Below are positions 1-33,052 of a DNA stretch of 58,963 bases, in pieces. Position 1 is the first letter of the stretch. Each line of letters starts with the position of its first letter. The notes under the pieces are model-generated. The model was not told the origin of the DNA and made no database searches. It worked only from the letters and a program-made list of their open reading frames with translations. This DNA is from a virus (Duplodnaviria; Caudoviricetes): the IMG/VR virus record IMGVR_UViG_3300024264_002160, positions 1 through 58,963 of that record; one strand, given 5' to 3'. Both the position numbers and the translations under genes were made by a program.

Positions 1-3000
1 CCATTAACGGATTACGTAAAACTGGTAACGATTATTATAACTTTAAAGAATACTTTAAGACAAAAGTAAAACAAATATGGAATACAAGTTTATCAACAGA
101 TACGATTCGAGATATTGTTGATAAAGCCCTAACTGAAATTAACATTGGTAAAAATACTACATTTAATTACAGCAAGAGTGATATGGTGTATTATAATAGT
201 GAACGTACACAGACTATAAACATTACTAATGCAACTACTATATTCTACACAGATAATACCAGTAACATGTTTAATGATAGTCATAACCATGTTTATGTGT
301 ATATCAAGGATTACAACGGTAGCGAGTATGTTTGGCGTCCATTACAGCGAGATATTGATTATACTATTAATATTGATGAGCTTTCATTAACAACTGCGGC
401 TGTTCTTGACAGTAGTTCAACACCTGCACAATTGGAAATACGTTGGTATGACTTTAATAATTATAGTTATATTCCACCAAGCACAGTTAAACTTGGGTTG
501 ATTAAACCATACACTGTTGAAGTAGTTAATGGCAAACTATTAAACCATGATGGAAGTGTACATGTTTGTGATGGTACTGAATTTTACAATACAGCAGATA
601 CTAACTTTGATATTGTGTCTGCATGCTTATTGGAACTAGAAACAAGAATTGTAGCTGGTCTAATTGATAAACACTATATTATACAGCAACAACTTATGGA
701 TATTTTGCCAAATGCAAATCGCACTACTAGTAATAGTTGGGCCGATATGGCTGATATACTGGACGATTGGTACAACTCATACGCTACTAAAAACAACTTG
801 GTAGGATTTAATAGTGCTTCATATTATGATGTTAGCGATGAGTTTACCTGGAACTACAGTAGCGTTGGACCTAAGATTGGCAGCTGGAAAGGGATATACT
901 CTTACTACTTTGGTACAGATCGACCAGACACACACCCATGGAGAATGCTTGGACATCATCGTAAGCCAAGTTGGTGGGATACAAATTACAGTTGGACTGA
1001 TCCAACCAAACGTGCTGCACTTATTGCAAGTTTAAAAATTGGTGAAATTGGAGATCCGTCCTTGGCTAATAGATATACTGATGTATTGGTTAATCGCTCA
1101 GCATATGATTGGGATAATAATACACTGGTTACTACTGGCGGCACGATAAATGGACCAGTTACAGCAGGCGTTGTGCCTACCCCAACAGCTATTGAGCAAG
1201 CAAAAAACTTCCAGTTTAATGACTGGGGACCGATTGAAAATAGTTGGAGATCAACAAGTTTATTTACTTTTGCTTTAGCTGAAGCAGCATTGTTGTTTAA
1301 ACCATTCCGTGTTTTTGAAAACTTTTACAAACTAAATCATGTTAGTACAATTGAAACTATCAATACTAAACATGCTCAGCGAGTAATAGACACACCGAGA
1401 TTTAGAAGCAATTTAAAAAATACATCAATGCATCAACAGTCTGTAGACAAAAGAACAATTATAAATGTAGTTGTAGATACTTCAGGATCTGGCTATAATA
1501 ATAGTACTACAATAGACGCCAACAATACTAAATTTGGTGATAGTAAGTTCACAGTTAGAGTGGCCGGCGGAGAAGTCAAAGCAATTGGTGTTGCAAAGTC
1601 AGTTGCAGGATACTCAGATAATGTATCTCTTAGTATATCAGGACCAATTGGAGCTAGTGGAGCAACTGCTAGTGGGTTTACTGACATTATTAATCCAGTA
1701 ATACCTGGACTAAACAGTATAGTGGTTGAATGGGCTAGTAACTATAATATTACACCAGATGATCTTATTGAAAGTTTTGGAAATTTACAAAGTGAATTGA
1801 TGATACCAGTTGGTGGATATACTGATAAAAATATTATTTCTGTACTACTGGATAGTAGTTATCAGAAAGGTCCAGTAGAAATACCAAAGCAAGACTATAG
1901 TATTGTATTAACTAAAAGTTCACCTATCAAGAATGTATTTTATTCTGGACTTAAGATTACTAAAGGTGATTTTGGATATAGTGTAACTGGTTTTGATACA
2001 ACAAACAGAACCTTTACTGTGTATCCTGTTAGCGAAGGTGGTCACGTAAGCAAAATAGATATTGGGAATTTAGATGTTAAACGATTCCACAAATACAGAA
2101 ACAACACTGTAAAATATACATATGGGCATACTTTTCTTAAACGTCAAGACTTGTTTAACTTTATACTTGGACTTGGTGAATATTATCAAACGCAAGGATT
2201 TGAAGCTGAAGCTCGTTGGTTGCAAGATGCTCGCACTGCAATGGAATGGAGCCTCAGTGAGTCACCAAGCCCATTATATATCAACGGAGTACTAAACACA
2301 CTAGAGTTTACCCAAGGGTCAGTGGGGTATGTAGACTATATAGGCTATAGTTATGATGGTACTTCTAATATTATTAACAGTGACAACAAGCAGATTAAAC
2401 CAAGTCAGATGCTGGTATTGCGTAACGATACAACTACTGAATTTAGTTTAAAGGATACTACAAAAGAGATGTTTGGTCTTAATGTAAGTGTTGTTGAATA
2501 CGAACATATTATTACATTAAACAACCTTAGCCAGTTTAGTGATATTACATATGATCCAGTAACTGGTATTTCACATACACGCATTAAACTAGAAGGCGAG
2601 CGTACACGTAACTGGAATGGGCGTATTGAAGCACCAGGATATTTGGTTAAATCAGATGGTATTATGAGCAACTTGGAAACAAGTGTTCGTGAAGTTGAAC
2701 GTGATAACATCAACAGTGATAGTAAAACATTAAACCTATCTACTAGACAGACTGCAAGATTTAATACTGGGTACATTGAGGGAAGTTATCTAAGCAATAC
2801 ATTTATTGAAGACAACGCTGGATACAACTTTGGCAAAGGATTACGTAAAATGAAAGGCACAACTGTTGCAGTTGATGCATTTATGCGTAATCAAAACTTA
2901 TTTGGAACTACCCAAAGTTATGATATATATGAAGAGTGGATGGTAAGACTGGGCGATTATGGCGATACTCAAAAGCGTAACCCAATTGAAATACAACTTG

Positions 3001-6000
3001 ATAGTAACTTACTTAAAACTAACCCACAGGCAATACGCTTTAATGAAAATTACGTCAGTGACAATGCTGGCGACCTTATAATAGATTATCACAGTGGTAG
3101 TACTACCCTTATTACTGGCGATTTAACTAAGCCTTTTGACGTATTACCTCCGGAGTATAACAATACCAGTAGTATTAGTGTAAGTGAAAAGTTTAAATCA
3201 CATTTGCCATTAGCGGGATTGCCACTGGCAAGTGAAGCTGAACACAAATTAAAAAGCATTGACGATATTGGAAGTGCATACAGTATCCTGGAAGATTATG
3301 CTACCTTACCAAATTGGAGTGCAGTTGTTGCATACAAAACTGGAGATATGGTACGCAAGGATGGTAAAGTATACCAGTTAAATATTGCAACCACAGGACT
3401 AAGCAGTATAAGTGACACAATTATATTACGTGGTAGCACATTATATCCAAGTGTGCCTAGTGGTGAAACTCTAATAATTGACGGTACTACAATTACAATC
3501 AGTAAAACAAGTACCACTACTGCATATGATGTTATCAATGTGGATGGTACAATTAATAATCCAACAGCACCCAACAATAGTACACTTATTATTGACGGGT
3601 CAACTATAGTTTTAGATAAAACTATAACCACAACAAACTATGCACCTATTGTAGTAACTGGAACTGTAGGCAATCCTACAGTCACAGGTAATGTAGGCGA
3701 AGGCCTACTAATAGATGGTACATTTGTTGACCTTGTACAGAATACTAGCATTACCACTAATATTAGTGCATTGAGTGCATTAGAACAAGGATTTTCACCA
3801 GCGTTTGTTACTAGTGCTAGTGAAAATACTGTAGCAGTTGCTAGAATTAATGCACTGGAAGACTTGCGTGTTGCATACACTGCAATTGAAGGCGGAAGTG
3901 CGTGGACCACATGGATTGGAAACTACTACACTGGCACATTTGCTAATAGTGGATTAAACATACCATATTTGTCTACTGAATTAAGCGGTGCAAATGCTGG
4001 GTACAGTGCAGAGATAACAACATTATTGCAAAATGATGTAGATATTGTTAATGCATGTACAAACCAAAGTTACACCACTGGCAGTTTACCAACAAATAGT
4101 GACAGAACTACATCAGTAAATGCACTGGCAACTGGTACATATATAGATGACTTTGCTACATTTGTAAAAATTGGTGGAAGTATACTAACCGGTTCAACAG
4201 TCGCTACAGTGAATACTACAGTGCCACGTATTTTTGATATTGATGACTTAATAAGTGAGATCCAAAGCTCACTAACAAGTGCTGGTAATTCTACTATTAC
4301 ACCAAGTAAAAATGCTACTAATCAGTTGGTAATTACAAAAACTGCAAGTGCTGGAGACTCAAGTTTAACAATTGGTAGTGCGGGCAGTAATACTGAAGTA
4401 GGATTTAGTACTAATAGTCAAGTATATAATTCACAAACAAGCACAGTGGTATCAGGCGGTACTCTTAATCTTAATGAAATTATACAAGAAATTAATGAAG
4501 CATCTTTAAGTGGTGTTAGTGCATCCGCAAATGGAACACAACTACGTATACAAAGTGTAAATCAAACCATAACTATTGGTTCAGGCACTGCCAATGGTAA
4601 CGTTGGTATCGGAGTTGGTACTACTAATGCCACAACAACAGTTACTACATCACCAACAGATTCACAAATTTACGATATTGTTGATCAAATTAACAGTGCA
4701 TCTATTAGTGGTATAACAGCAACTAATGTTAACAATAATTTGGTGTTAAACAGTACAAATGATACACTTGTTATAGGCTCTGGTACAGCAAACGTCAGTG
4801 TGGGCATAAGTGCAGGTACAATAACTGCATCAACCACAGTTACAAATACATTTAGTGCTAGTGATTGGAATCAGATTGAAGACCCTGCAAATGCCAAATT
4901 AAGTACTTGGGTATTAGACAACATTGGAATTACAACCACTGACTACAGTAGATCTGCAGGATATAATGTATACCAAACATTTGATTATGATTTTGAAATT
5001 ACAGAAATTTGTGCAGGTAATGAAACTGGCGATGATGCACTGATTAAAACTTCAGTAGATCACAATTTGTCAAGTGGTGATTATGTAGTTATAATCAACA
5101 GTACAAGCACACCAAGTGTTGACGGCATACATCAAGTTACACGAGTAGATGATTCAAATCACTTCTATATTGACAAGTATATTGAATCATTGGGTAAAGG
5201 TGGAAAACTTTTAGCACTACGCCCTACTAAATTTAACAACAACACAGAATTAACAAACACATTAACAAATTCCAAATACTATAACAACCTTAAAGGTTGG
5301 CGTGTGGGTATGTTAGCATATGTTGACAATGTTATTACTAACGGTATTAGTACTAACCTTGGTGCAGTTTATCAGACAGTTCAAGGAACTAACGGTATTG
5401 AATTTAAAAAGATAAGAGATCAAGCAAAGCGTACAGACAACAGTATGATCAAAAATGCAATTTTGTATAATACACATACGCAACAAACTGTACAAACATT
5501 TGAAGTATTCCATCCACTGGCTGGCATTATTCCAGGTGTGGTTGATACTGAGTTATCGTATAAGTTAAATTTTGACACAGCTAACTATACCAACACAACT
5601 GATAGCACGTACTCAATTACAGATTCAAATTATTGGGACGAACAGCATATTGGAGAAACATGGTGGGATATAAGTAACGCAGTATATTATGATTATGAGC
5701 AAGGTGATCTTGTTTATAAACAAAGCTGGTGGGCAACATTATTCCCAACTAGTAGTATTGATATATACGAATGGACCAAGAGTACAGTTACACCAGATGA
5801 ATATGAAGCTGAAGTTCGTGCTGGTACTGTTGTTGACGGCATACAGTTAAGTGGCACTCCATATATACGTGATGGCGAATACGGCGAAGCAGTATACTAC
5901 TGGACTGAACTTACTGAATATAATATTTCCAGTGAACAAGAAGAAACATTTTACTACTTCTGGGTCAAAAACAAAACAACAAAAACTGGAGATAATCGTC

Positions 6001-8159
6001 AGTTTACAACAACTCAATTGACTAATATACTGAGTGATCCTAGTACGTTTGGATACAACTGGATTGCATCATCTGGCAGTAGCACAAACCAAGATCAAGA
6101 AAATAGTATACTAGTAAGTAACTTGGAAACATTTATCAACAATGGCGAAAGTGCTTTACAATTAAACTTTGCTAATTCAGATATTGACTTACATCGTGAA
6201 TATGTGTTGCTGGCAGAAAATGACCCAGCTACAGTAATTCCAGAGTGGCTACACATGGGCTTACGTGATAGTATTGCTAGTTTTGATAAAACTTCAGTAA
6301 CTGAACCATACGCCGTGTGGAATGCTTCTGCATCATATACACAGGGTGAATTAGTACAAGCATCAGACGGTACCTTCCATCGTGCATCAACTTCTAATGT
6401 TAACAATGATCCTGTTACTGATTCAGCTAATACATGGAGTCAGATATATGTTAGTAAAATCAATCCTGACACAACTGATATAGATATAAACCAAGCAACT
6501 GTTGAGATACCTCAACCAAATCCAGTACCGGACAGTAATTTACATCCACTGGCACAGTATGGTAGTATGATACGTCCAAGACAAAGTTGGATCAAGTATT
6601 TGCCGGAAGCTAGACGGGTATTGGTTGATAAATTAAACAGACAGTTATTAAAAATTAACTTGATTGACACAGTTAAAAATTGGGATAAGGTTTTAAACTC
6701 AACAATTGTTAGTGGACAGCACAGTTATAAAATTAATGACTATTGGTCGTACACTGACTGGATGGTAGATGGGTTTATTATTGGACAAGATACTGATCGA
6801 ACAGTTACCCTACGCAGTGAACTTGCACTTACTCCTGGTATTGCAGGAGAGACAGCACGTGTCTTAAAGAGTTCACCAAATGAACAAGTAAGAAGACAGC
6901 AGATATTTAAATACAGTGGAACAACATGGGAACTGCAATTTAAAGAAAAAGCAACTATACAGTTTAAAACTTTATTGTGGGATTATAATAAAGAAGATTT
7001 TGGTTGGGATACTGGCAATTGGGACTTTACATTGTGGGATCACGATCCAGGTGCGATGTTGGGAGAAATACTGGATACGCTAAGATTTGATATTTTTGTA
7101 GGACAATATCAGCCATTATATGCTGATATGTGGTTTACAATGCTAAATTATGTAAACAGTGAGCAGAATAATCTTGACTGGGCGTTTAAATCAACGTATA
7201 TTAAAGCAGTGATTAAACACAACTTAGATAAAAATACCAAACTGTTTGAACTTGATAGAATAGACGATGTAATTGATTACATAAATGATATTAAGCCGTT
7301 CCATACTAAAATGCGTAACCTGTATACCCAGCGTGATCATCTAGATCAGTTTAAAGTTACAGCACAAGAGATTATGTATGGAATTAACATTACAGAAAAA
7401 TTAGATGCCCATGCAAACACTGGATTTGATGGCGTATTATTGGAAGGCGGTTCAAACTGGGCAATTGGCACAAATACTGATACTAGTTTGTTTACAACAC
7501 AAGAAACAGCAAGTGGTGCAGACATAAGTAATACTACAATAACAGTGGATGCTAGTAATATTAGTATTGATGGTAGTGATAGTGAGTTTACTGACATATA
7601 CGCAACTCACGGGTTCCTACAACCACAGTATGCAGGACATGGCACAGAACTATATCCAGCACAATTTGATGAAGCACTAGAGCTTCGTGTTACAACAAAT
7701 GTTACTGGTAGTACTGAAGATGCAAATAGTAAACGATTCAGAATGTTTATGGACAGTAACCGTGAAACTGAAGCAGTGGTAATTAATGTTAACACTACAC
7801 TAAGTGGCGACATTACACTTACTGACACTTCGATTCCAGTAACAAGTGGATCAGTGTTGTACAATGCAACACCAGATCAACTGGGTGTGATATGGATTGG
7901 AAATGAGCGTATTACATATACGCATATTGATAACGACACGCTAATAAATTGTACTCGAGGTACAGGTGGCACATGTAGTACAGCGCACAGTAATGGTGAT
8001 ACTGTATACGAATCAGGCCCTACAGTACGTATACCAGCACTAGACGAGCTTCAGGATTACGGTCAGCAACTACTGCCAGCATTTAATGACTTTGGTAAAA
8101 GCATAACCGATGCAACTAGTACTAGTAGTGAAGCCAAGTTTGTATATGACAACGGATAA
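1..8159 (+). CDS. Giant virion structural protein (baseplate/tail-associated), 5'-truncated, >2,700 aa
   Basis: The frame is open from position 3 (INGLRKTGNDYY...) into the ATG at 183, so the real start lies upstream of the window. The protein is T/S/N/G-rich, has two CBM5/12-like W..Y..G..V motifs and flagellin-IN-like repeats, and ends in a 'CTRGTGGT...H..G..V' motif. It heads a run of structural genes. Confidence 0.75.
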   Translation, partial: INGLRKTGNDYYNFKEYFKTKVKQIWNTSLSTDTIRDIVDKALTEINIGKNTTFNYSKSDMVYYNSERTQTINITNATTIFYTDNTSNMFNDSHNHVYVYIKDYNGSEYVWRPLQRDIDYTINIDELSLTTAAVLDSSSTPAQLEIRWYDFNNYSYIPPSTVKLGLIKPYTVEVVNGKLLNHDGSVHVCDGTEFYNTADTNFDIVSACLLELETRIVAGLIDKHYIIQQQLMDILPNANRTTSNSWADMADILDDWYNSYATKNNLVGFNSASYYDVSDEFTWNYSSVGPKIGSWKGIYSYYFGTDRPDTHPWRMLGHHRKPSWWDTNYSWTDPTKRAALIASLKIGEIGDPSLANRYTDVLVNRSAYDWDNNTLVTTGGTINGPVTAGVVPTPTAIEQAKNFQFNDWGPIENSWRSTSLFTFALAEAALLFKPFRVFENFYKLNHVSTIETINTKHAQRVIDTPRFRSNLKNTSMHQQSVDKRTIINVVVDTSGSGYNNSTTIDANNTKFGDSKFTVRVAGGEVKAIGVAKSVAGYSDNVSLSISGPIGASGATASGFTDIINPVIPGLNSIVVEWASNYNITPDDLIESFGNLQSELMIPVGGYTDKNIISVLLDSSYQKGPVEIPKQDYSIVLTKSSPIKNVFYSGLKITKGDFGYSVTGFDTTNRTFTVYPVSEGGHVSKIDIGNLDVKRFHKYRNNTVKYTYGHTFLKRQDLFNFILGLGEYYQTQGFEAEARWLQDARTAMEWSLSESPSPLYINGVLNTLEFTQGSVGYVDYIGYSYDGTSNIINSDNKQIKPSQMLVLRNDTTTEFSLKDTTKEMFGLNVSVVEYEHIITLNNLSQFSDITYDPVTGISHTRIKLEGERTRNWNGRIEAPGYLVKSDGIMSNLETSVREVERDNINSDSKTLNLSTRQTARFNTGYIEGSYLSNTFIEDNAGYNFGKGLRKMKGTTVAVDAFMRNQNLFGTTQSYDIYEEWMVRLGDYGDTQKRNPIEIQLDSNLLKTNPQAIRFNENYVSDNAGDLIIDYHSGSTTLITGDLTKPFDVLPPEYNNTSSISVSEKFKSHLPLAGLPLASEAEHKLKSIDDIGSAYSILEDYATLPNWSAVVAYKTGDMVRKDGKVYQLNIATTGLSSISDTIILRGSTLYPSVPSGETLIIDGTTITISKTSTTTAYDVINVDGTINNPTAPNNSTLIIDGSTIVLDKTITTTNYAPIVVTGTVGNPTVTGNVGEGLLIDGTFVDLVQNTSITTNISALSALEQGFSPAFVTSASENTVAVARINALEDLRVAYTAIEGGSAWTTWIGNYYTGTFANSGLNIPYLSTELSGANAGYSAEITTLLQNDVDIVNACTNQSYTTGSLPTNSDRTTSVNALATGTYIDDFATFVKIGGSILTGSTVATVNTTVPRIFDIDDLISEIQSSLTSAGNSTITPSKNATNQLVITKTASAGDSSLTIGSAGSNTEVGFSTNSQVYNSQTSTVVSGGTLNLNEIIQEINEASLSGVSASANGTQLRIQSVNQTITIGSGTANGNVGIGVGTTNATTTVTTSPTDSQIYDIVDQINSASISGITATNVNNNLVLNSTNDTLVIGSGTANVSVGISAGTITASTTVTNTFSASDWNQIEDPANAKLSTWVLDNIGITTTDYSRSAGYNVYQTFDYDFEITEICAGNETGDDALIKTSVDHNLSSGDYVVIINSTSTPSVDGIHQVTRVDDSNHFYIDKYIESLGKGGKLLALRPTKFNNNTELTNTLTNSKYYNNLKGWRVGMLAYVDNVITNGISTNLGAVYQTVQGTNGIEFKKIRDQAKRTDNSMIKNAILYNTHTQQTVQTFEVFHPLAGIIPGVVDTELSYKLNFDTANYTNTTDSTYSITDSNYWDEQHIGETWWDISNAVYYDYEQGDLVYKQSWWATLFPTSSIDIYEWTKSTVTPDEYEAEVRAGTVVDGIQLSGTPYIRDGEYGEAVYYWTELTEYNISSEQEETFYYFWVKNKTTKTGDNRQFTTTQLTNILSDPSTFGYNWIASSGSSTNQDQENSILVSNLETFINNGESALQLNFANSDIDLHREYVLLAENDPATVIPEWLHMGLRDSIASFDKTSVTEPYAVWNASASYTQGELVQASDGTFHRASTSNVNNDPVTDSANTWSQIYVSKINPDTTDIDINQATVEIPQPNPVPDSNLHPLAQYGSMIRPRQSWIKYLPEARRVLVDKLNRQLLKINLIDTVKNWDKVLNSTIVSGQHSYKINDYWSYTDWMVDGFIIGQDTDRTVTLRSELALTPGIAGETARVLKSSPNEQVRRQQIFKYSGTTWELQFKEKATIQFKTLLWDYNKEDFGWDTGNWDFTLWDHDPGAMLGEILDTLRFDIFVGQYQPLYADMWFTMLNYVNSEQNNLDWAFKSTYIKAVIKHNLDKNTKLFELDRIDDVIDYINDIKPFHTKMRNLYTQRDHLDQFKVTAQEIMYGINITEKLDAHANTGFDGVLLEGGSNWAIGTNTDTSLFTTQETASGADISNTTITVDASNISIDGSDSEFTDIYATHGFLQPQYAGHGTELYPAQFDEALELRVTTNVTGSTEDANSKRFRMFMDSNRETEAVVINVNTTLSGDITLTDTSIPVTSGSVLYNATPDQLGVIWIGNERITYTHIDNDTLINCTRGTGGTCSTAHSNGDTVYESGPTVRIPALDELQDYGQQLLPAFNDFGKSITDATSTSSEAKFVYDNG
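3420..4820 (+). repeat. Protein-level repeats: 3x 'G..P....L.IDG..I/V' followed by 3x 'D/EI...I..AS..G..A....L.I......L.IGS' around a central unique domain
   Basis: N-halves are IILRGSTLYPSVPSGETLIIDGTTI, INVDGTINNPTAPNNSTLIIDGSTI and IVVTGTVGNPTVTGNVGEGLLIDGTFV. C-halves are DDLISEIQSSL..., NEIIQEINEASLSGVSA... and DIVDQINSASISGITA... Confidence 0.75.
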
Positions 8160-8209: not shown

Positions 8210-8815
8210 ATGCATCAGTTACAAGAAATTGAAAAAACAGGGTTAGGCGTTATGGGCCACATTAAGATTCAGGATCCTGAATCTGGTGAGGTATTTGTAG
8301 ATAAACGTAATGCTATTAACTATGAAAATATGAGTGTTGCTATTGCGCATCTGTTATCTAATTTAACAGACGGTGATGGTACAACAGGAAACGCATACCA
8401 TGTTTTAAACATGGGCTTTGGTAATGGTGGTGTTAATGTTGATGCTACTGGCGTAGTAACTTATCAAGCAACAAATACAAATAGTGCTACTGGACAATTG
8501 TATAACGAAACATATAGCAAAGGCGTTGCAAATACAGCAAGCGCAGATGCTGACAATCATATGGTTGTGTTACACACCGGCGGTAATACTTATAGTGATA
8601 TTGTTATCACTTGTACACTTGGCTACAATGAGCCAGCTGGTCAGGACGCATTAGATAATGCTGCTAACTTGACTGGAAATTACATTTTTGATGAATTAGG
8701 GTTAAAGACTCCAGGAGGCGTGCATTTAACTCACGTTATTTTCCATCCTGTACAGAAGAGTGCAAACCGTAAAATTCAAATCATATATACAATTAGAATT
8801 ACAGCAGGATCATAA
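8210..8815 (+). CDS. Putative baseplate/tail structural protein
   Basis: 201 aa with GHIKI.D....E.....NAI and YIFDELGL...THVIFHPVQKS.NR.IQI.YT motifs, typical of large-phage structural clusters. Late promoter upstream. Confidence 0.6.
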   Translation: MHQLQEIEKTGLGVMGHIKIQDPESGEVFVDKRNAINYENMSVAIAHLLSNLTDGDGTTGNAYHVLNMGFGNGGVNVDATGVVTYQATNTNSATGQLYNETYSKGVANTASADADNHMVVLHTGGNTYSDIVITCTLGYNEPAGQDALDNAANLTGNYIFDELGLKTPGGVHLTHVIFHPVQKSANRKIQIIYTIRITAGS

Positions 8816-8818
8816 GAC

Positions 8819-9883
8819 ATGGCATATACAGTAGATTATACAGACGGAACAAAAACAGCAATCCTTGTCAATGACGGAACAGTAGACACAACCACTGACC
8901 TCAAGTTAATTGGTAAAAACTACAGCCGTTACGGTGAAGTTGTAGCAGAAGACTTTTTACATCTGCTAGAAAACTTTGCTGGGGGAACAGCGCCAAACCG
9001 GCCAAGTGAGGGCCAGCTTTGGTATGATAGTACAAATAATTGTATGAAATATTTTGACGATACACAAGGAAACAGCGGCAACTGGAAAGGTGTCGGTAGT
9101 ATGACAGTACAAAGTGCTGCACCAAACGGTGTTGGCGAAACAGACGGTCATATGTGGTTAGACAGTGATAACGGTCAGCTTTATATGTATTATAACGGTG
9201 CATGGCAAACAGTTAGTAGTCCACTAGGCACAACACAGTTTGTTGCACGTACTAGAATTGATACAGCAAATGCAAGTCATAGCACATTAGAAATGATTGT
9301 TAACGGTGAAATTGTTTCAATTGTTAGTAGTGATGCGGCAGATTGGGCACCAAACACAGCCGGTGCAACAGCTGAGTACTTGGAGAATGGAACTACATTA
9401 CTTAATACACAGTTTCCAACATTAAAGCAAGGTATTAACATGAACAACGGTTCAAGTTACTTGTTTAATGGTACTGCTACTTCAGCACAGTATGCTGACC
9501 TTGCAGAACGTTATGAAGCAGATCAACCAATTGCATACGGTACAGTTGTAGACTTGGGTGGCGAAAAAGAAGTAACCACCAGTAGTACTGAATGTTCAAG
9601 CGCAGTATTTGGAGTTGTATCAACTAATCCAGGACTTATGCTAAATTCAAATGCAGGAACAGATGATACACATCCGTACATTGCACTTGCAGGTCGAGTA
9701 CCATGCAAAGTAATAGGAACAACCAACAAAGGAGACAGACTAGTCACTTCAAGTACCCCAGGTCATGCCAGAGCAGTTAGTGATGGCGAAGATTGTACAT
9801 ACCAGCACATAATTGGTAGAGCCCTTGATGCTAAAATAAATCAAGAGCCAGGGTTAATTGAAATTGTAGTAGGAGTCAAGTAA
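8819..9883 (+). CDS. Tail fibre/spike-like protein with C-terminal intramolecular chaperone / autoproteolytic (Peptidase_G2-like) domain
   Basis: N-terminal LIGKNY..YGE....FLHLLENFA anchor and two 'G.LW.D' fibre repeats. C-terminal ATSAQYADLAERY...GVVSTNP...ALAGRVPCKV...KGD.LV.S..PG...IIGRAL. Confidence 0.7.
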   Translation: MAYTVDYTDGTKTAILVNDGTVDTTTDLKLIGKNYSRYGEVVAEDFLHLLENFAGGTAPNRPSEGQLWYDSTNNCMKYFDDTQGNSGNWKGVGSMTVQSAAPNGVGETDGHMWLDSDNGQLYMYYNGAWQTVSSPLGTTQFVARTRIDTANASHSTLEMIVNGEIVSIVSSDAADWAPNTAGATAEYLENGTTLLNTQFPTLKQGINMNNGSSYLFNGTATSAQYADLAERYEADQPIAYGTVVDLGGEKEVTTSSTECSSAVFGVVSTNPGLMLNSNAGTDDTHPYIALAGRVPCKVIGTTNKGDRLVTSSTPGHARAVSDGEDCTYQHIIGRALDAKINQEPGLIEIVVGVK

Positions 9884-9884
9884 A

Positions 9885-11099
9885 GTGGCAGTTAGCATCG
9901 GTCAGGTAATTGAAGCATCACAGTATAATGCTCTTGCAGATTTATGCAATAAGTGTTTTGCTGATGTTTATACCGGACGAGCATATGATGCAACATTTAG
10001 TGGCGGTAATATTGATAATGCCGCAGACTGTAATGCAATTTTTTCAATACATGAAACTGACCATCCATCAGTAAGCCCAGGCATTGGTCCTTTCTCATTT
10101 ACTTCAAATGTAGAATCAACAGATTTTATTGTGGTAGTGATTGGATATGAAACCAAAGTTGGCAGTGGCTATACTATTGATTATAGTGCTAATACTATTA
10201 CATTTACTACAGCCGTTCCAGCAGCAACAAGAGTGGTAGTTTTTAATCGCACTTCACATAGGTTTGGTTACGGTAACAGTGCAGTAATTAATAATTTAGC
10301 AGCGGGTACACTGGTTGAAAGCGTACACACCAATAGTTTAATCGATCGCACTAATGCTTCATTGACACATGTGGGCGATACTACCCAAATTACCAATGTT
10401 GCAACTGGTCAAAGTATTACAGCAAATGACGGTAACACGATCGAAACTCTTATTAACACTAATTTATTTCAAAATAATGTTCATCTATCAGTGGGATCAA
10501 CTGAAGCTAGTGAATTAAATTCTGCTAATTTTGTAAGATCAACTGATTGGACTACCAGACTAGAAGGAATTTTTGCATACACATTCTCTAGTTATAGTGA
10601 AGCCAGATACTTCTTCAACAGTGGCGGACAAATAAGATTTAGTTTAGATATGACAGGCAATGCTTCAAACAATGGATATCTAAATTGGAATAGTATTTGC
10701 GAACAGTTAGGTACAGTTCGTATGAATCATGATAATACATTACAAAGTGGTACAGGTGGAATTAGCAATGCTAAAGGCTTTTATCATTTAACTGATAGTT
10801 TTCAAACTATCTACAGTAGTGCAACACCCAGCGGTGGAGGCTATGGCGGCGGCGGATATGCAAGTTTACGTGCTAGATTTTATGCAAAATATGTAACCAC
10901 TGGTTCAGGCGAACATCAGATACAAATTAGATGTGTTATGGACGATAGTGCATACAATGCAGATCCTATTACTGGTACAACAACATATTATGCCAAGGTG
11001 TATCAACCAAACAGTATTACAAAAAATTCAGTCACTTACAGTGTAACTGGACCAACAGCTAGTGTCATTGAAGATTTTAATTCAGGTAATGACAGCTAA
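9885..11099 (+). CDS. Putative virion structural protein (GTG start)
   Basis: 404 aa, T/S/N/G-rich, with an 'ARYFFNSGGQIRF' motif and a GGGYGGGGY insert. Located in the structural operon. Confidence 0.55.
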   Translation: MAVSIGQVIEASQYNALADLCNKCFADVYTGRAYDATFSGGNIDNAADCNAIFSIHETDHPSVSPGIGPFSFTSNVESTDFIVVVIGYETKVGSGYTIDYSANTITFTTAVPAATRVVVFNRTSHRFGYGNSAVINNLAAGTLVESVHTNSLIDRTNASLTHVGDTTQITNVATGQSITANDGNTIETLINTNLFQNNVHLSVGSTEASELNSANFVRSTDWTTRLEGIFAYTFSSYSEARYFFNSGGQIRFSLDMTGNASNNGYLNWNSICEQLGTVRMNHDNTLQSGTGGISNAKGFYHLTDSFQTIYSSATPSGGGYGGGGYASLRARFYAKYVTTGSGEHQIQIRCVMDDSAYNADPITGTTTYYAKVYQPNSITKNSVTYSVTGPTASVIEDFNSGNDS

Positions 11100-15192: not shown

Positions 15193-16758
15193 TTGGACTA
15201 CTTTAACAGTGCAAAAGAAGCACGAGAAAAACTAAACGCAATTTCTCCATCAATGTGTATGGCAAAGTGGTTACAGGTAAGTTTGCACTTACCACAAGGA
15301 AGAACACATAGTTGTTACCATCCTCCCACACATGCGATTCCATTGGATGAACTTAAAGCTAATCCCAATGCATTGCATAATACAAAATTTAAAATGCAAG
15401 AGCGAAAGCAAATGCTAAATGGTGAGCGGCCCAAAGGATGTGAGTACTGTTGGAATGTAGAAGATGCACCAAACCCACCACAAGATGGTAGACTTAGTGA
15501 CCGGCACTACCGTTCAAGCGAATGGTGGGTTAAAGATGCATGGGATGAAGTTGTTAATAATCCCTGGGATCATGACATCAAACCACGTTATGTAGAAGTA
15601 AATTTTAACCAAGCATGTAATTTAAAATGTAGCTATTGCAGTCCACACCTAAGTAGTGCGTGGGAAGAAGATGTTAAAAAGAACGGTGGATTTTGGTTTA
15701 GCAATGGCACAGGACACAATGACACAAGCTATCTAAAACGTAGTGGGCTAATGCCATTGGAAGTCGCACGTAAGGATAATCCATATGTTGAGGCATTTTG
15801 GAAATGGTTCCCAGATATATACCGTGGACTAAAGGTATTTCGCATGACCGGTGGCGAGCCTCTTATGGACAACAATACTTTTAAAGTATTAGATTATGTC
15901 ATTGATAACCCTAATCCACAATTAGATTTAAGTATCACTAGTAATATGTGTCCCCCATCAAACAGTTTGATGGATAAGTTCATTGACAAAATTCGTAAAC
16001 TAGAAGAAGTAAGAGTATGGGAAGACCATATAAATCTTAATCCAGACAGTGGTAATGAATGGTATGTAGCACCAGCTTGCAAGCACTTTAGTTTATATGT
16101 TAGTGTAGATGGAGTTGGTGATCAGGCAGAGTATATGCGTGATGGTTTAGATTTTGACACAATGTATAACAATTGCAGACGGGTACTAAGTGAAACTAAC
16201 GGCACTGAAATATCTTTCATCAATACGTTTAATTTATTAAGTATTCCAAACCTACGTGGATTTTTGAATATGATATTAAAACTGCGTGAAGAATTTGGTT
16301 ATGAAAATCAGACTGATATTGAGATACAGCCGCCAGATAGAAACGGATTTGTACATCCAAAATTTATTCGTAAGCGCCGTCAGCGCATATGGTTTGATAC
16401 ACCATACTTAAGATACCCAGACTGGATGACTATTCAACTAGCTGATCAATCAATGCGTAGTCTTATACAAGAAAATATCGACTTTATGCACGACAACGTC
16501 TTGCCTGATGACGAGTACGGACGCAAGTATACTGGATTTAAAAATTATGAAGTTGCTAAAATGGAACGTGACTTAGCATGGGCCAAAGAGGGACTAAATA
16601 TTGATGAAGAGAAAAGAAACGATAACTTTATTCGATTTTATGAATATTTTACTCAATACGACAAGCGAAGAAATTTAAACTTTCTGGATACATTTCCAGA
16701 AATGGCTGAGTTTTGGAATCGCTGTAAAAAATTAAAGGAAAAAAAATATGGGCCGTAA
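15193..16758 (+). CDS. Radical SAM enzyme with N-terminal auxiliary Cys/His domain (rSAM 1)
   Basis: CNLKCSYC, TGGEP, N-terminal CMAKW...SCYH and CEYC. TTG start. Confidence 0.9.
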   Translation: MDYFNSAKEAREKLNAISPSMCMAKWLQVSLHLPQGRTHSCYHPPTHAIPLDELKANPNALHNTKFKMQERKQMLNGERPKGCEYCWNVEDAPNPPQDGRLSDRHYRSSEWWVKDAWDEVVNNPWDHDIKPRYVEVNFNQACNLKCSYCSPHLSSAWEEDVKKNGGFWFSNGTGHNDTSYLKRSGLMPLEVARKDNPYVEAFWKWFPDIYRGLKVFRMTGGEPLMDNNTFKVLDYVIDNPNPQLDLSITSNMCPPSNSLMDKFIDKIRKLEEVRVWEDHINLNPDSGNEWYVAPACKHFSLYVSVDGVGDQAEYMRDGLDFDTMYNNCRRVLSETNGTEISFINTFNLLSIPNLRGFLNMILKLREEFGYENQTDIEIQPPDRNGFVHPKFIRKRRQRIWFDTPYLRYPDWMTIQLADQSMRSLIQENIDFMHDNVLPDDEYGRKYTGFKNYEVAKMERDLAWAKEGLNIDEEKRNDNFIRFYEYFTQYDKRRNLNFLDTFPEMAEFWNRCKKLKEKKYGP

Positions 16759-18322
16759 GCATTGGGAAGGCGAAACCCTTCATGAATTTAAAGAGCGTAT
16801 AATTGATCCGATTAGTAAATCGTATTGTGCTGCAAAATGGTACAATGCTACTATTTGGTTAGGACACGGCCAAACTACAAGTTGTCATCACCCGCCGGGC
16901 CATTGGATTCCTCTTGAAGAACTAGAAGATAATCCTTCAGCAATTCATAATACGCCACATAAGAAAAAGATGCGTAAGATGATGCAAGAGGGTGAACGTC
17001 CCAGTGAGTGTGAGTACTGCTGGAAAGTAGAAGATATGGGTAAAAACAATATCTCTGATAGAGTATTTAAAACTGAGATATTTTCAGATAAAGACATCAC
17101 TGACAGTGCGGTAGCTAATTGGGACGAAAATGTTATGTTACGTACACTTGAGATTAGTTTTGATAGAGCATGCAACTTAAAGTGCAGTTATTGTAATCCT
17201 GCTTTTAGTACAGCATGGGTTAAAGACATTAACACATTTGGTGCATATCAAAATATACAGAGTGATGGTCGTGGACATTTCATCGACACTGCTCCATGGG
17301 CTGCACCAGCGGCCAAAAAAGAAGCAAATAATCCGTATATTCAAGCATTTCACAAATGGTGGGAAACTGGGCTAGCAGATAATTTGGAAGAAATACGCAT
17401 TACAGGCGGAGAGCCAATCATGCATGCCAGTACTTGGAAGTTGTTTAACTGGTTTGAGCAAAACCCTCAACGTGGCAGAAGTATGAGGTTTGCTATTAAT
17501 AGTAATCTTAGTCCAGAAACACCCAAGGTATTGGACAAGTTAATTGATAAAAGTTGGCACGTTCCAAATTTTGAAATCTATACAAGTTGTGAAGCAGCAA
17601 AAGATCAAGCTGAATACATACGTGATGGATTGCGATATGACTTATGGATGAATAATATACATCGAGTGCTAAAAGAATCTAATGTTAGTAAAGTACACAT
17701 GATGATGACAATTAATGCACTATGCTTAACTACAATCACAGAGTTTATGGATGAAATGTTAGATCTTCGCGAAGAATATGGTCGCAGAGCGCCGACAATG
17801 ACATTAAACATTTTACGTTTTCCTAGCTTCCAAAGTTGTGCAATTATTCCAGTGGAAATAAAATCATACTATAAAGATAAATTACAAGATTGGTTTGATA
17901 GTGATCGTCCAATTGATATGTTAACTGATGCTGAGAAAGAAAGTATACAGCGATTAATTAATTATTTGGATATTGTAAAAACTCCACATAAAAATACAGC
18001 AGACATGCCCAAACTATACAACGATTTTAAAGCATTCTTTGCACAGTATGACATACGTAGAAATAAAAATTTCGTGGAAACTTTCCCCGGTCCATTTGCT
18101 GAATGGTTTGAAAGTATTGATGCTGTTGTACCAACTCGAGAACAAATTGAAAACAAAGAAATTATGTTTGTAAGTGATAGAGCTGGTGATCCAGCCACTA
18201 CTGAAGAATATGCAGGCGGTGATGATGAGCATGAACATGAAGATTACAGTGAACAAAAATTTCATGGGGGTTGGGATACTGAAACAGACGGACTGGGTGG
18301 AATATCTGTAGATGAAGCGTAA
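16748..18322 (+). CDS. Radical SAM enzyme with N-terminal auxiliary domain and acidic C-terminal tail (rSAM 2)
   Basis: CNLKCSYC, TGGEP, N-terminal CAAKW...SCHH and CEYC. Confidence 0.9.
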   Translation: MGRKHWEGETLHEFKERIIDPISKSYCAAKWYNATIWLGHGQTTSCHHPPGHWIPLEELEDNPSAIHNTPHKKKMRKMMQEGERPSECEYCWKVEDMGKNNISDRVFKTEIFSDKDITDSAVANWDENVMLRTLEISFDRACNLKCSYCNPAFSTAWVKDINTFGAYQNIQSDGRGHFIDTAPWAAPAAKKEANNPYIQAFHKWWETGLADNLEEIRITGGEPIMHASTWKLFNWFEQNPQRGRSMRFAINSNLSPETPKVLDKLIDKSWHVPNFEIYTSCEAAKDQAEYIRDGLRYDLWMNNIHRVLKESNVSKVHMMMTINALCLTTITEFMDEMLDLREEYGRRAPTMTLNILRFPSFQSCAIIPVEIKSYYKDKLQDWFDSDRPIDMLTDAEKESIQRLINYLDIVKTPHKNTADMPKLYNDFKAFFAQYDIRRNKNFVETFPGPFAEWFESIDAVVPTREQIENKEIMFVSDRAGDPATTEEYAGGDDEHEHEDYSEQKFHGGWDTETDGLGGISVDEA

Positions 18323-19700
18323 TATACCTATATGGAATGATGATGGCAGCTGTAATGAAGAAAGTGAAAACAAAACTTTCTGTATGGCACCCTGGACACA
18401 CACCTACATATCACCACAAGGCGAACGGCGTATGTGTTGTGCTAGTAGAGAAGAGCATAGTTTTCAAAAACAATATATTGATGCTACAAATGATGAAAAG
18501 TACGGGGAGATACGTGAAAGCGAAACCGAAGCCGACAAATTTAATCCACAAACATTAACTGAACACTGGAACTCTCCTTATATGCGAGATATTCGCAAGA
18601 AGCTAATGGCTGGAGAACGTATTAGTCAGTGTGATGTTTGTAATGATGATATTTTAAGTATTAGTAGTTACCGTAAGTGGTTTACTGGTGTATTGTTTAA
18701 AGACAAGATTCAAGAAGCATTTGACAAAACTGACGATGATGGGTATACTACAATGCCCACTATTAGCTTTGACTATCGTTACTCGAACTTGTGTAACTTC
18801 AAGTGTCGTATGTGTGGAGAGCAACTCTCAAGTGCATGGGAAGCTGAAAAGAAAAAGCATGACATGTGGAGCCCAGAACATCAGCCATTTATGATTCCTG
18901 AAGTAAAACGTAAAATGAACGCCTTTCAGAAAGATGTTGCTGAGCCTGAATTTAAACAAGCCATTAGTGACGGTATTGTAGAAGAAATATACTGGGTAGG
19001 CGGTGAGCCACTTATGTATGATATACACTGGTGGGCATTAGAAGAGATGACTACTAACGGTAGTGCTAAAAACTGTTATTTGCGTTATAATAGTAATCTT
19101 TCAAGGATTGACTTCAAGGGAAAAAACTTGTATGATTACTTACCACAGTTTAAAGACTGGCTAATGTGTGCAAGTATTGACGGCACAGGAGATATTGTAG
19201 AGTTTATACGCAAAGGGATCGTATGGGAAGAGTGGTTAGCAAACTTTAAGCAAGGATTGGAATTGCCAGGTGGCAAAGAAAAAATGCGGTTTGATTTAAC
19301 TATCACTGGTCCTGGTATGTTTAGTTTACGTGATTTATTTGATCTGAGTTTAGAATTAGATGTAAGTATGGAAACTAAAATTATGTTTGCATTCCATCCG
19401 GATATTGTGTTTAGTCCATTCGCTTGGCCCAAACATATATTACACAGGCATATTGATGAACTACTTGCATACATGGAACCACGTGCTACTTGGAGACAGC
19501 AGACCTTAATTAATACACTGCGTGAAATGAAAAATAGACCAACATTTGATGAACAGTTTCCAGACACACATGAACAACAATTTAAGAATGGCAAGGGGTA
19601 TCAGGATCGTTTAGACCAAATACGCCAGGAACAGTTTAGATTAGAAGATATATATCGCAACGACGATGAGTTGTATAATTGGTGGAAACGTTTTGAATAA
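18312..19700 (+). CDS. Radical SAM enzyme, N-terminal twitch-like domain (rSAM 3)
   Basis: CNFKCRMC, GGEP, CMAPW.H...CC and CDVC. Confidence 0.9.
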   Translation: MKRNIPIWNDDGSCNEESENKTFCMAPWTHTYISPQGERRMCCASREEHSFQKQYIDATNDEKYGEIRESETEADKFNPQTLTEHWNSPYMRDIRKKLMAGERISQCDVCNDDILSISSYRKWFTGVLFKDKIQEAFDKTDDDGYTTMPTISFDYRYSNLCNFKCRMCGEQLSSAWEAEKKKHDMWSPEHQPFMIPEVKRKMNAFQKDVAEPEFKQAISDGIVEEIYWVGGEPLMYDIHWWALEEMTTNGSAKNCYLRYNSNLSRIDFKGKNLYDYLPQFKDWLMCASIDGTGDIVEFIRKGIVWEEWLANFKQGLELPGGKEKMRFDLTITGPGMFSLRDLFDLSLELDVSMETKIMFAFHPDIVFSPFAWPKHILHRHIDELLAYMEPRATWRQQTLINTLREMKNRPTFDEQFPDTHEQQFKNGKGYQDRLDQIRQEQFRLEDIYRNDDELYNWWKRFE

Positions 19701-20895
19701 TAACCTTTGTATACTCCCATGGATACACTTACACGCATTTGCCAATGGCGATGTGTATCCTTGTTGTATGGCTGATTACAATTACAAATTAGGAAACAGT
19801 AGAGATCAAACCTTTACTGATATATGGAATAGTGATGGTATGAAAGAGTTGCGTGTGTCAATGATAAACAATCAGAAACACAGTGCATGTAACAAATGTT
19901 ATAATATTGAAAACAGTGGCGGAACAAGTATGCGTCAAAACATGAACGCTCAATTCAGTCATAAATTTACAAATGTGGATACTACACACCCAGATGGCAC
20001 TGTGGACAAAGTTGATATGGCATACATGGATATAAGATTTAGCAACATATGTAACTTTAAATGTAGAAGTTGTGGCCCAACGTTTAGTAGTCAGTGGAAA
20101 GACGAATGGGAACAACTGTATACAGGTGGTACCTGGCCACGCATAACACGTGTTAAAAATACTCTGGAAGAAGTGTGGGAAGATATCGAAACTTGGATTG
20201 ACACTGTGGAAAATATTTACTTTGCTGGTGGCGAACCATTAATAATGGATGAACATTACAAAATTCTAGAGTACCTTATTGCTAATAATAGAACTGATAT
20301 TAATATAAGTTATAATACTAATATGAGCACACTTGCTTATAAAAAATACAACTTGATTGATCTATGGCAGAATTTTAAAAATATAAGGATTGATGCCAGT
20401 TTAGACGGTTATGGAAAGCATGCTGAATACATACGTGCTGGCACTGACTGGAACCAAATTGAGAAAAACATAGAGCATATCAAATTACACTGTCCTAATA
20501 TTGTATTGTCAATATCATGCACTGTAAGTATATACAATGCATTTCATTGTATTGACTTTATTAAATATTGCATTGACAAGAAGTTTGTAGATTGTGGTGA
20601 TATGATTAATATTAATCTGGTACAGTTTCCTGAGTTATTAAACACACAGGTATTACCGATTCATTTAAAAAATCAAGTGGTAGAAAAGGTCAATAAATAT
20701 ATACAAGATGATATACCAGAATACAACACATCATTGCTTAAGAATAATCTAAGAATGTATCAAAAATTTTTACTAGATCAAAATATAGATAAGTTTGATG
20801 AGTTTGTTGGCTGGACAAAAAAATTAGATGAGATACGAAATGAAAATGTCATCGATATCCTGCCTGAAATCAAGGACTTAATAGATGACCGATAG
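19693..20895 (+). CDS. Radical SAM enzyme, N-terminal twitch-like domain (rSAM 4)
   Basis: CNFKCRSC, AGGEP, CILPW.H...CC and CNKC. Likely TTG start at 19693 (ORF track gives 19666). Confidence 0.9.
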   Translation: MNNNLCILPWIHLHAFANGDVYPCCMADYNYKLGNSRDQTFTDIWNSDGMKELRVSMINNQKHSACNKCYNIENSGGTSMRQNMNAQFSHKFTNVDTTHPDGTVDKVDMAYMDIRFSNICNFKCRSCGPTFSSQWKDEWEQLYTGGTWPRITRVKNTLEEVWEDIETWIDTVENIYFAGGEPLIMDEHYKILEYLIANNRTDINISYNTNMSTLAYKKYNLIDLWQNFKNIRIDASLDGYGKHAEYIRAGTDWNQIEKNIEHIKLHCPNIVLSISCTVSIYNAFHCIDFIKYCIDKKFVDCGDMININLVQFPELLNTQVLPIHLKNQVVEKVNKYIQDDIPEYNTSLLKNNLRMYQKFLLDQNIDKFDEFVGWTKKLDEIRNENVIDILPEIKDLIDDR

Positions 20896-33014: not shown

Positions 33015-33031
33015 TATAAATACTATTTATG
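33015..33031. promoter_or_regulatory. Face-to-face late-type promoters serving divergent genes
   Basis: TATAAATA on plus (33015-33022) and CATAAATA on minus (33024-33031), between the B12-rSAM and the carbamoyltransferase. Confidence 0.6.
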
Positions 33032-33052
33032 ACACCAGTAGAAAGCGACCAT

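Follow-up and report, generated by a model that had tools for sequence, protein, structure and literature searches.

The stretch of DNA analyzed here (the window) is a linear IMG/VR virus record of 58,963 bases, a fragment (CheckV completeness, 4) whose G+C content is ∼36%. Its first open reading frame (ORF), on the plus strand, encodes most of a giant virion structural protein and, within it, a predicted module of domains inserted one inside the other. The ORF is open at the 5' end, as the window begins inside the gene (positions 1 to 3), and ∼954 codons of the gene lie upstream of the contig end. Its product is the last 2,718 residues of a 3,672-residue protein from a metagenome collection (P0002; 100% identity). 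A preliminary description of this DNA had taken the translation from position 183 as the protein; that translation (P0001; 2,658 residues) is an internal piece only, with P0001 residue n equal to P0002 residue n + 1014. The region studied comprises 561 residues (nucleotides 3270 to 4952), in which residue r corresponds to window nucleotide 3270 + 3(r − 1) and to P0001 residue r + 1029. The parts of the gene and module are listed in Table 1.

With an E value of 5.7e-181, the giant protein is assigned to PHROG 10938 ("virion structural protein"). Its C-terminal third matched 88 phage records at less than 60% identity, mostly from jumbo phages, including PA5oct-like Pseudomonas phages, Sinorhizobium phage Phosso, phages of Vibrio, Xanthomonas, and Salicola, and many phages of Escherichia and Klebsiella. 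The PA5oct homolog, gp355 (3,857 residues), is annotated as a virion structural protein detected by electrospray ionization tandem mass spectrometry and aligned with P0002 in eight colinear BLAST segments at 25 to 35% identity. By annotation, the gp355 gene has a "baseplate wedge subunit" gene on one side and a T4 gp10-like gene on the other, and a 201-residue ORF follows downstream, as in the window. Because the PA5oct homolog adjoins baseplate wedge and T4 gp10-like genes, the giant protein would be placed at the baseplate periphery.

Next to be considered is the evidence for a split domain. The preliminary description had noted the start of a chitin-binding domain resembling carbohydrate-binding module families 5 and 12 (CBM5/12), with its closing motif far downstream, and both were located in the frame of the giant ORF. 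Pfam CBM_5_12 aligned to P0001 residues 1044 to 1071 (nucleotides 3312 to 3395) over profile positions 1 to 28 of 44 only, because the remainder of the domain lies ∼490 residues away. The score was 18.8 bits (E = 1.7e-3) on P0001, 21.2 bits (E = 3e-4) on the region, and 24.7 bits (E = 2.4e-5) on full-length P0002. The closing motif, FSASDWNQIEDP, occupies region residues 528 to 539 (nucleotides 4851 to 4886). When the region and 26 full-length homologs were aligned (A1; 27 rows; checked by eye), W16 and Y22 were conserved in at least 90% of the sequences and F528, D538, and P539 were invariant; the closing tryptophan was not kept in all relatives. A second CBM5/12-like motif, this one contiguous (W..S.SY..GE.V ... 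W.QIY), was noticed elsewhere in the giant protein, at window positions ∼6318 to 6452 (P0001 residues 2046 to 2090); it is weak, with an independent E value (i-Evalue) of 0.017 against the profile of the split domain's N-part and no Pfam match at E ≤ 1.

Between the two parts of the CBM5/12-like domain, the preliminary description had recognized three N-half repeats (B1, B2, and B3), a helical core, and three C-half repeats (B3', B2', and B1'), all of which were recovered. For each repeat, a hidden Markov model (HMM) was made from its orthologous columns across the 27 homologs and run against P0001; each HMM found only its two sister repeats within the protein. The N-halves matched at P0001 residues 1088 to 1124, 1125 to 1162, and 1163 to 1193 (cross-match i-Evalues of 5e-11, 1.4e-13, 1.5e-7, 1.8e-5, and 0.023; B3 was missed by the B2 profile), with nothing outside the sister repeats better than 0.2 in the 2,658 residues. 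The C-halves matched at residues 1349 to 1425, 1426 to 1491, and 1492 to 1556 (2.5e-22 to 5.9e-3), and the best match elsewhere in P0001 reached only 0.012. No DNA-level tandem repeat was detected by Tandem Repeats Finder in nucleotides 3000 to 5200; the repeats are visible in the protein only and are therefore old and diverged.

Table 1. Parts of the giant gene and of its predicted nested module, with the solved structures matched at each level of the model (region residues as defined in the text)
Feature	Window position	Strand	Region residues	Basis
Giant virion structural protein, 3' 2,718 codons of 3,672 residues	3..8159	+		ORF list; 100% match to P0002; PHROG 10938; colinearity with PA5oct gp355
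Level 0 N-part, first ∼35 residues of CBM5/12-like domain	3297..3401	+	10-44	Pfam CBM_5_12; chitin-binding alignments starting at 9-12
Level 1 N-strands: hairpin preceding B1 and first hairpin of B1	3402..3503	+	45-78	Contacts; structural matches
Level 2 N-strands: second hairpin of B1 and first hairpin of B2	3504..3617	+	79-116	Contacts; FliD matches 87..455/456
Level 3 N-strands: second hairpin of B2 and first hairpin of B3	3618..3737	+	117-156	Contacts; FliD and sheath matches 122-125..390-392
Outgoing strand to core	3738..3767	+	157-166	Strand 158-166; 157-166 in C-arm interface
Helical core, innermost tip, ∼140 residues	3768..4184	+	167-305	Seven helices; pLDDT mostly >90
Return strand from core	4185..4226	+	306-319	Strand 310-319; 311-324 in N-arm interface
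Level 3 C-half, repeat B3'	4227..4457	+	320-396	HMM cross-matches; helix and strands; pairs with 127-138
Level 2 C-half, repeat B2'	4458..4655	+	397-462	HMM cross-matches to 2.5e-22; pairs with 89-108
Level 1 C-half, repeat B1'	4656..4850	+	463-527	HMM cross-matches; pairs with 53 and 69
Level 0 C-part, closing CBM5/12-like strand	4851..4904	+	528-545	Invariant columns; strand 533-536; contacts; alignments to 534-543
Level 0, model matches			9-12..534-543	Chitin-binding and small phage baseplate/fiber domains; Z 4.4-6.6, 41-55 aligned
Level 1, model matches			46-51..514-523	P. aeruginosa flagellin, cyanophage sheath and podovirus nozzle proteins; Z 4.7-6.9
Level 2, model matches			82-87..455-459	FliD (Bdellovibrio, Salmonella, E. 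coli), phage XM1 baseplate chain; Z 8.9-7.8, 86-95 aligned, rmsd 2.2-3.0
Level 3, model matches			120-125..388-392	P. aeruginosa FliD, phage E217 chain, sheath domains; Z 6.9-7.2
Core, model matches			162-187..265-305	Generic helical bundles; Z ≤5.2, within background for helical proteins

The region (residues 1 to 561) was modeled with AlphaFold2 from alignment A1. The mean predicted local distance difference test score (pLDDT) was 89.4, with 406 of the 561 residues at 90 or above. The model was read out through its structural matches, obtained with VIA-align against 48,161 representative chains (the tool reports the first and last aligned model residues), and through the contacts of a split-chain prediction. 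Compact single domains of solved structures, with 41 to 108 aligned residues, covered model ranges hundreds of residues long; therefore, each domain in the model consists of an N-segment and a distant C-segment. The top matches were FliD proteins of five species (Z scores of 8.9, 8.7, 8.4, 8.4, and 7.8; 86 to 89 aligned residues, root mean square deviation [rmsd] of 2.2 to 2.5, 9 to 23% identity), and the superposition took in most of a solved FliD D3 domain (chain ranges of ∼104 to 225; 86 to 87 aligned residues, Z 8.9 to 8.4, rmsd 2.2 to 2.5). Level 0 aligned with chitin-binding domains at Z 4.4 to 5.4 (41 to 55 aligned residues, the C-terminal strand included; 17 to 28% identity); the topology fits, but Z is low, as would be expected of a domain of ∼45 residues. 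Seven DSSP helices lie within residues 167 to 301 of the core. The core matched no Pfam family (apart from CBM_5_12, Pfam searches with the module, with the contiguous beads of relatives, and with four kinds of core gave subthreshold noise only), and the best ESM Atlas result with it, 0.82, was under the tool's level for a lead. The generic helical bundles in Table 1 were rejected as a fold family for the core, as their scores were below the tool's background for helical proteins.

When the N-arm (residues 10 to 166) and the C-arm (residues 308 to 545) were folded as two separate chains, they paired with an interaction prediction score from aligned errors (ipSAE) of 0.69, compared with 0.19 for the best of three controls. 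At least 97% of the contacts agreed between runs, partner pLDDT was at least 91, and ∼580 contacts were in the nested register. Of 80 solved complexes, 58 attain the tool's ipSAE mark, as do 2 of 110 mismatched pairs, although these counts apply only approximately here because our own alignment was used. The lowest-error contacts were 53:493, 69:502/503, 89-91:426-429, 100:399, and 105-108:435-441 for levels 1 and 2 and 127-130:354-357 and 138:322 for level 3, where 127:366 was also in contact; at level 0, N-arm residues within 13 to 39 touched residues 532 to 539. The C-arm index drops while the N-arm index climbs, as it would in an out-and-back chain, and the N- and C-segments of each level are predicted to touch in nested order. 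The pairing of B1 with B1' that the preliminary description had proposed to check by structure prediction was thus predicted, and local sequential folding of the repeats was not seen. Sequence searches of the PDB revealed no solved complex of this kind, and the pairing of the arms is therefore unlikely to reflect a known structure, although the individual beads have a known fold.

The serial order deduced from the repeats (A1-B1-B2-B3-core-B3'-B2'-B1'-A1', where A1 and A1' are the parts of the CBM5/12-like domain) agreed with two predictors and with the comparative data, except that the structural domains of the N-arm were shifted by half a repeat. In each 37-residue N-half, the first hairpin is predicted to belong to level k and the second to level k + 1. 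The first hairpin of B1 (residues 66 to 77) packs on B1' and the second (residues 80 to 92) on B2', the second hairpin of B2 (residues 118 to 134) packs on B3', and the hairpin preceding B1 (residues 45 to 54) completes level 1, whose N-strands by DSSP are residues 45 to 48, 51 to 54, 66 to 70, and 73 to 77.

To extend the analysis beyond a single sequence, relatives of the module were compared. The preliminary description had suggested that homologs might lack the insert or vary in nesting depth, and such forms were found. The module was detected in this giant-protein family alone, in 42 representative clusters (E ≤ 1e-3) among 1.84 billion, all of them proteins of 3,000 to 4,000 residues or fragments. 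The distance between the conserved flanks was 529 to 564 residues in 23 of the 25 homologs, other than the protein of the window itself, in which both flanks were found; the exceptions were P0022 (495 residues) and P0028 (280 residues), while P0009 is a fragment. With pooled HMMs, N- and C-halves were found in equal numbers in the 26 homologs besides the window's own protein, 3 + 3 in 25 of them and 2 + 2 in P0028. P0028 reads N-N-C-C with 8 residues between the arms, so that the innermost level and the core are exactly missing. In P0049, P0052, and P0063, all three pairs are present and the innermost N-half runs directly into its C-half. These four essentially coreless forms (three full-length relatives and one entry of 1,826 residues) have 1 to 8 residues between the innermost halves. 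Whole inner levels are thus added or removed by natural insertions and deletions with N:C parity kept. In distant proteins, the short N-half HMM often detected only one or two N-halves against three C-halves; a third, divergent N-half, in several cases with a loop insertion, was visible by eye in all distant sequences inspected, although this is not a statistical test.

The core itself was typed by BLAST in 57 proteins with an N anchor and at least one following C-half. The helical core was present in 37 of these, an unrelated core of 126 residues in 2 (P0022 and P0038), a beta-rich "GDG" core of another kind in 2 (P0056 and P0064), and none of these in the remaining 16, 4 of which are the essentially coreless forms. 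By eye, the cores of P0053, P0055, P0057, P0058, P0061, P0062, and P0066 are also beta rich and seem to be of a similar kind. Without exception, the variable material lay at the junction of the last N-half and the first C-half. Among relatives that share the helical tip (24 rows, with P0009, P0022, and P0028 excluded), the tip had a mean pairwise identity of 0.40, compared with 0.42 to 0.53 in the arms and 0.43 in the remainder of the protein. A hypervariable receptor-binding tip was rejected on this comparison of tip and rest of protein.

A second structure prediction was made for the coreless 386-residue module of P0052 (alignment A2; 29 rows). The model (mean pLDDT, 90.5) had the same nest, with an innermost bead that is contiguous (residues 123 to 226) and outer levels spanning 82-86..284-294, 49-50..351-357, and 8-11..369-380. 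The contiguous bead matched a phage XM1 baseplate chain (Z 9.1) and FliD (Z 8.9, 8.3, and 7.8), and the FliD superposition was repeated over 93 to 94 aligned residues (Z 8.9 to 7.5); level 0 again aligned with chitin-binding domains, at a low Z of 3.8 to 4.8, as would be expected of a domain of ∼45 residues. A free-standing contiguous bead, N-half followed by C-half, was also observed in P0031 (residues ∼2640 to 2716), ∼140 residues downstream of the nest; the unit exists un-nested too in the giant-protein family. HMMs of the N-half, the C-half, and the closing strand found nothing in PA5oct gp355, in which residues 1974 to 2297 correspond to P0002 residues 1967 to 2758, and a tblastn search of 50,697 phage records with the module returned no match, including among cultured relatives. 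As the PA5oct homolog lacks it, the module is accessory.

Known systems with similar folds were then compared. The head domains D2 and D3 of the flagellar cap protein FliD (HAP2; PDB 6kty, 5h5t, 5h5v, 5h5w, 9m67, 5fhy, 6sih, and 6iwy) have the same bead fold (Z 8.9 to 7.2, 86 to 93 aligned residues, rmsd 2.2 to 2.8; Z 8.9 to 7.0 against the contiguous P0052 bead). FliD is itself nested: D3 is a continuous middle piece and D1 and D2 are built of N- and C-terminal portions (PMC8306008). The statement in the preliminary description that the two halves are contiguous in flagellin/FliD "IN"-type domains needs qualification, as that source has only D3 contiguous and D2 split by D3; nesting is a known habit of the fold. 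The module differs from FliD in lacking terminal coiled coils, in holding three mutually homologous beads inside a CBM-like domain with a helical tip, and in belonging to a phage virion protein. Flagellin outer domains (D4/D5 of Geovibrio thiophilus flagellin [PDB 9au6], D2/D3 of Campylobacter FlaA, and D2 of P. aeruginosa FliC) follow the same out-and-back chain path; 4nx9 matched the region model at Z 6.5 over residues 50..521 and the P0052 model at Z 7.1, and 9au6 matched the P0052 model at Z 4.0 (residues 86..291 against chain 176..591). Fold nesting, including self-insertion of a duplicate, has already been described for flagellins, with G. thiophilus flagellin as a nested case (PMC11532411), and this self-nesting is the same evolutionary move as that proposed here. 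Flagellin has two self-nested levels, however, compared with three in the module, which lacks the filament-forming D0/D1 core and has a CBM5/12-like base, varying tip cassettes, and a phage setting.

Protruding domains of contractile tails, identified by entry titles, have the bead fold as well: 7kh1_A6, 8env_A, 8kee_A, 9khy_a, and 9cb9_A matched the region model at Z 7.9, 7.0, 6.9, 5.2, and 6.1 and the P0052 model at Z 9.1, 7.5, 8.0, 5.5, and 6.1, respectively. These matches show the bead fold to be widespread already among phage tail proteins. In those chains, the protruding domain is a single contiguous stretch of ∼120 residues (chain ∼90 to 215), neither repeated nor self-nested, unlike the module. 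The T4 sheath protein gp18 has nested domains. CBM5/12 chitin-binding domains (PF02839; PDB 4tx8, 2rts, 8yug, 4hmc, 5zl9, 4ny2, 2d49, and 6z40) resemble level 0 in profile positions 1 to 28 and may share its fold, but the putative domain of the module is interrupted by ∼485 residues and scores below the Pfam cutoff. Among the jumbo-phage homologs, PA5oct gp355 is colinear with the whole protein and shares its gene neighborhood but is without the module.

Several neighboring genes of the window deserve mention. Downstream of the giant gene (positions 8210 to 11099, plus strand), the ORFs keep the PA5oct order: the 201-residue ORF (PHROG 11259; E = 1.8e-63), a 354-residue ORF with tail fiber and virion structural PHROG matches, and a 404-residue ORF with no match. 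Positions 15193 to 24610 and 41092 to 43817 (plus strand) hold a long series of paralogous ORFs of ∼400 to 520 residues with PHROG matches to radical S-adenosylmethionine (SAM) enzymes. Pfam Radical_SAM was detected in 9 of 10 scanned ORFs at E ≤ 1e-3 (three of them under the 29.5-bit cutoff), and seven of the radical SAM ORFs also match SPASM, which in these precedes the radical SAM core, whereas it usually follows it. Such numerous radical SAM enzymes beside baseplate genes are unusual in a phage. A Nol-like carbamoyltransferase (PHROG 1601; E = 4.4e-95) is encoded at positions 33029 to 34540 (plus strand), within a strand-switching stretch at 26.5 to 33 kb.

Taken together, these results suggest, with a probability of roughly 70%, that nucleotides 3297 to 4904 encode one accessory module, built by four nested domain insertions, in a giant virion protein that an uncultured marine jumbo phage would carry in its baseplate region. 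In the predicted arrangement, a CBM5/12-like domain would be opened after its first ∼35 residues and the opening filled by a bead like those of the FliD head and flagellin outer domains, whose N-terminal beta-hairpins are separated from its C-terminal helix-plus-sheet part. A second homologous bead would lie inside the gap of the first, a third inside the second, and the helical bundle of ∼140 residues inside the third, such that the chain would pass each of the three beads twice, once on its way to the tip and again on its return, and would complete the CBM-like domain ∼490 residues after opening it. The models and the comparison of relatives show N/C pairing in the nested register, a common insertion point in all relatives, and natural two-level, coreless, and core-swapped forms.

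Certain observations weigh against this reading. The structural evidence is all predicted, and the monomer and complex predictions share the 27-row alignment and hence are not independent. The predicted template modeling score of the region model was 0.45, as would be expected of an elongated multidomain chain, and the mutual orientation of the beads and the shape of the stalk are uncertain on that account. FliD Z scores of 8 to 9 are only slightly above the 7 to 8 that is typical of the tool's best score for models without a clear match, and Foldseek found no match in the PDB at E ≤ 1e-3 (the best was Helicobacter pylori FliD at 3e-3, with a poor TM-score, followed by short CBM5 matches). At the level of sequence, neither the region, the P0028 module, nor the contiguous innermost beads of P0052 and P0049 matched the Pfam Flagellin_IN/FliD families (PF07196, PF07195, and PF02465) at E ≤ 10, and the whole protein had no Flagellin_IN, FliD_N, or FliD_C match at E ≤ 1. 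When PDB sequences were searched by phmmer and by profile with P0002, A1, and A3, FliD did not appear, and chitinase A1 (E = 0.78) was the only sensible row. Thus, the flagellin/FliD "IN"-type identity claimed in the preliminary description was supported by the fold and not by the sequence. All three CBM_5_12 scores missed the curated cutoff of 26.2 bits. Finally, the tip is not hypervariable among the relatives that share it, unlike a receptor-binding tip in an arms race.

Alternative readings were weighed against the same evidence. Were the N-halves, the helical region, and the C-halves to fold as separate sequential domains, like beads on a string, the split CBM motif would be coincidental; the subthreshold Pfam CBM match, the missing sequence-level FliD match, and the reliance on predicted structures are all in keeping with this. 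The bridging of N- and C-segments by single-domain matches at four levels in two different models, the pairing of the arms with controls at or below 0.19, and the restriction of variation to the innermost junction with N:C parity kept nevertheless make such an arrangement very improbable, and a 37-residue pair of hairpins would presumably lack a core of its own. An interchain domain swap, in which the N-arm pairs with the C-arm of a neighboring copy in the baseplate to give an intersubunit clasp instead of a free stalk, is improbable to a lesser degree. The arms do pair when given as two chains, several copies of the protein round the baseplate are probable from the position of the PA5oct homolog among wedge genes, and a tip as conserved as the rest of the protein fits a structural contact. 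Monomer models, however, close the nest in one chain with a pLDDT of ∼90, the 1 to 8 residues between the innermost halves of coreless forms fit an intramolecular turn, and the module is dispensable in PA5oct-type relatives.

The nested fold might also be right and yet serve no specific partner, as an accreted surface decoration with at most weak, generic adherence like that of other small phage surface domains. We consider this unlikely, though still plausible: the module is absent from cultured relatives, the tip is entirely lost in the four coreless forms, and the cores match no family of known activity. Against it, every part of the module matches the remainder of the protein in degree of conservation among relatives down to ∼35% identity, the scaffold is kept even without a tip, and the junctions hold invariant residues.

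With respect to origin, levels 1 and 2 resemble each other most, in the N-arm as in the C-arm (N-halves, 28.4/36.8 bits compared with 0.7 to 17.3 bits to B3; C-halves, 55.1/65.0 bits compared with 2.9 to 32.7 bits to B3'), and therefore the two halves of a bead would have been duplicated together. The beads probably arose by repeated insertion of a bead copy into its own hairpin/helix junction. By the simplest route, a contiguous bead would have been copied into the hairpin/helix junction of an existing bead, this step would have been repeated, and tips would have been captured later at the innermost junction; intermediates or reversals of this route would look like the coreless and two-level forms.

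With respect to role, the nested module may act as a stalk that projects a swappable tip from the baseplate periphery, in accordance with the flagellin/FliD principle of a variable domain projected from a conserved base (PMC8306008). The preliminary description had seen in such a stalk a possible appendage for receptor binding or glycan display. Its likeliest job would be contact outside the protein itself, either with the host surface, for adhesion or sensing, or with a neighboring virion protein. Because the helical tip has not outpaced the rest of the protein in its evolution, we favor a projecting stalk whose contact is both specific and conserved, and whose specificity would change by cassette exchange and not by arms races of point mutation. 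A more specific proposal, possible but tentative, is that the stalk is an insertion-tolerant telescopic scaffold whose bead copied itself at least twice and whose innermost slot swaps helical, two beta-rich, or no tips, retargeting the baseplate to host-surface ligands.

Domain nesting is usually one or two levels deep. What is new here, on the predicted structures, is the depth: a fourth domain encloses three homologous beads nested in one another, and these in turn enclose a fifth domain. The occurrence in a phage baseplate and the natural series of depth and tip variants are new as well. Literature searches found flagellar precedents and no description of such a nested module in phages. Because every domain is discontinuous in sequence, the module is invisible to automated annotation. 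It links the outer-domain fold of flagellins and the flagellar cap to the baseplate of a marine jumbo phage, and natural relatives supply the intermediates, with two levels, with three and no tip, and with three and different tips; few complex discontinuous architectures have a stepwise origin that is legible in living sequences. The module also points to a loop able to accept very large insertions, which would be useful in protein engineering. If the proposal of a swappable innermost slot is true, these phages would have a cassette-style specificity system distinct from tail fiber swapping, and the module would be a natural template for domain insertion engineering.

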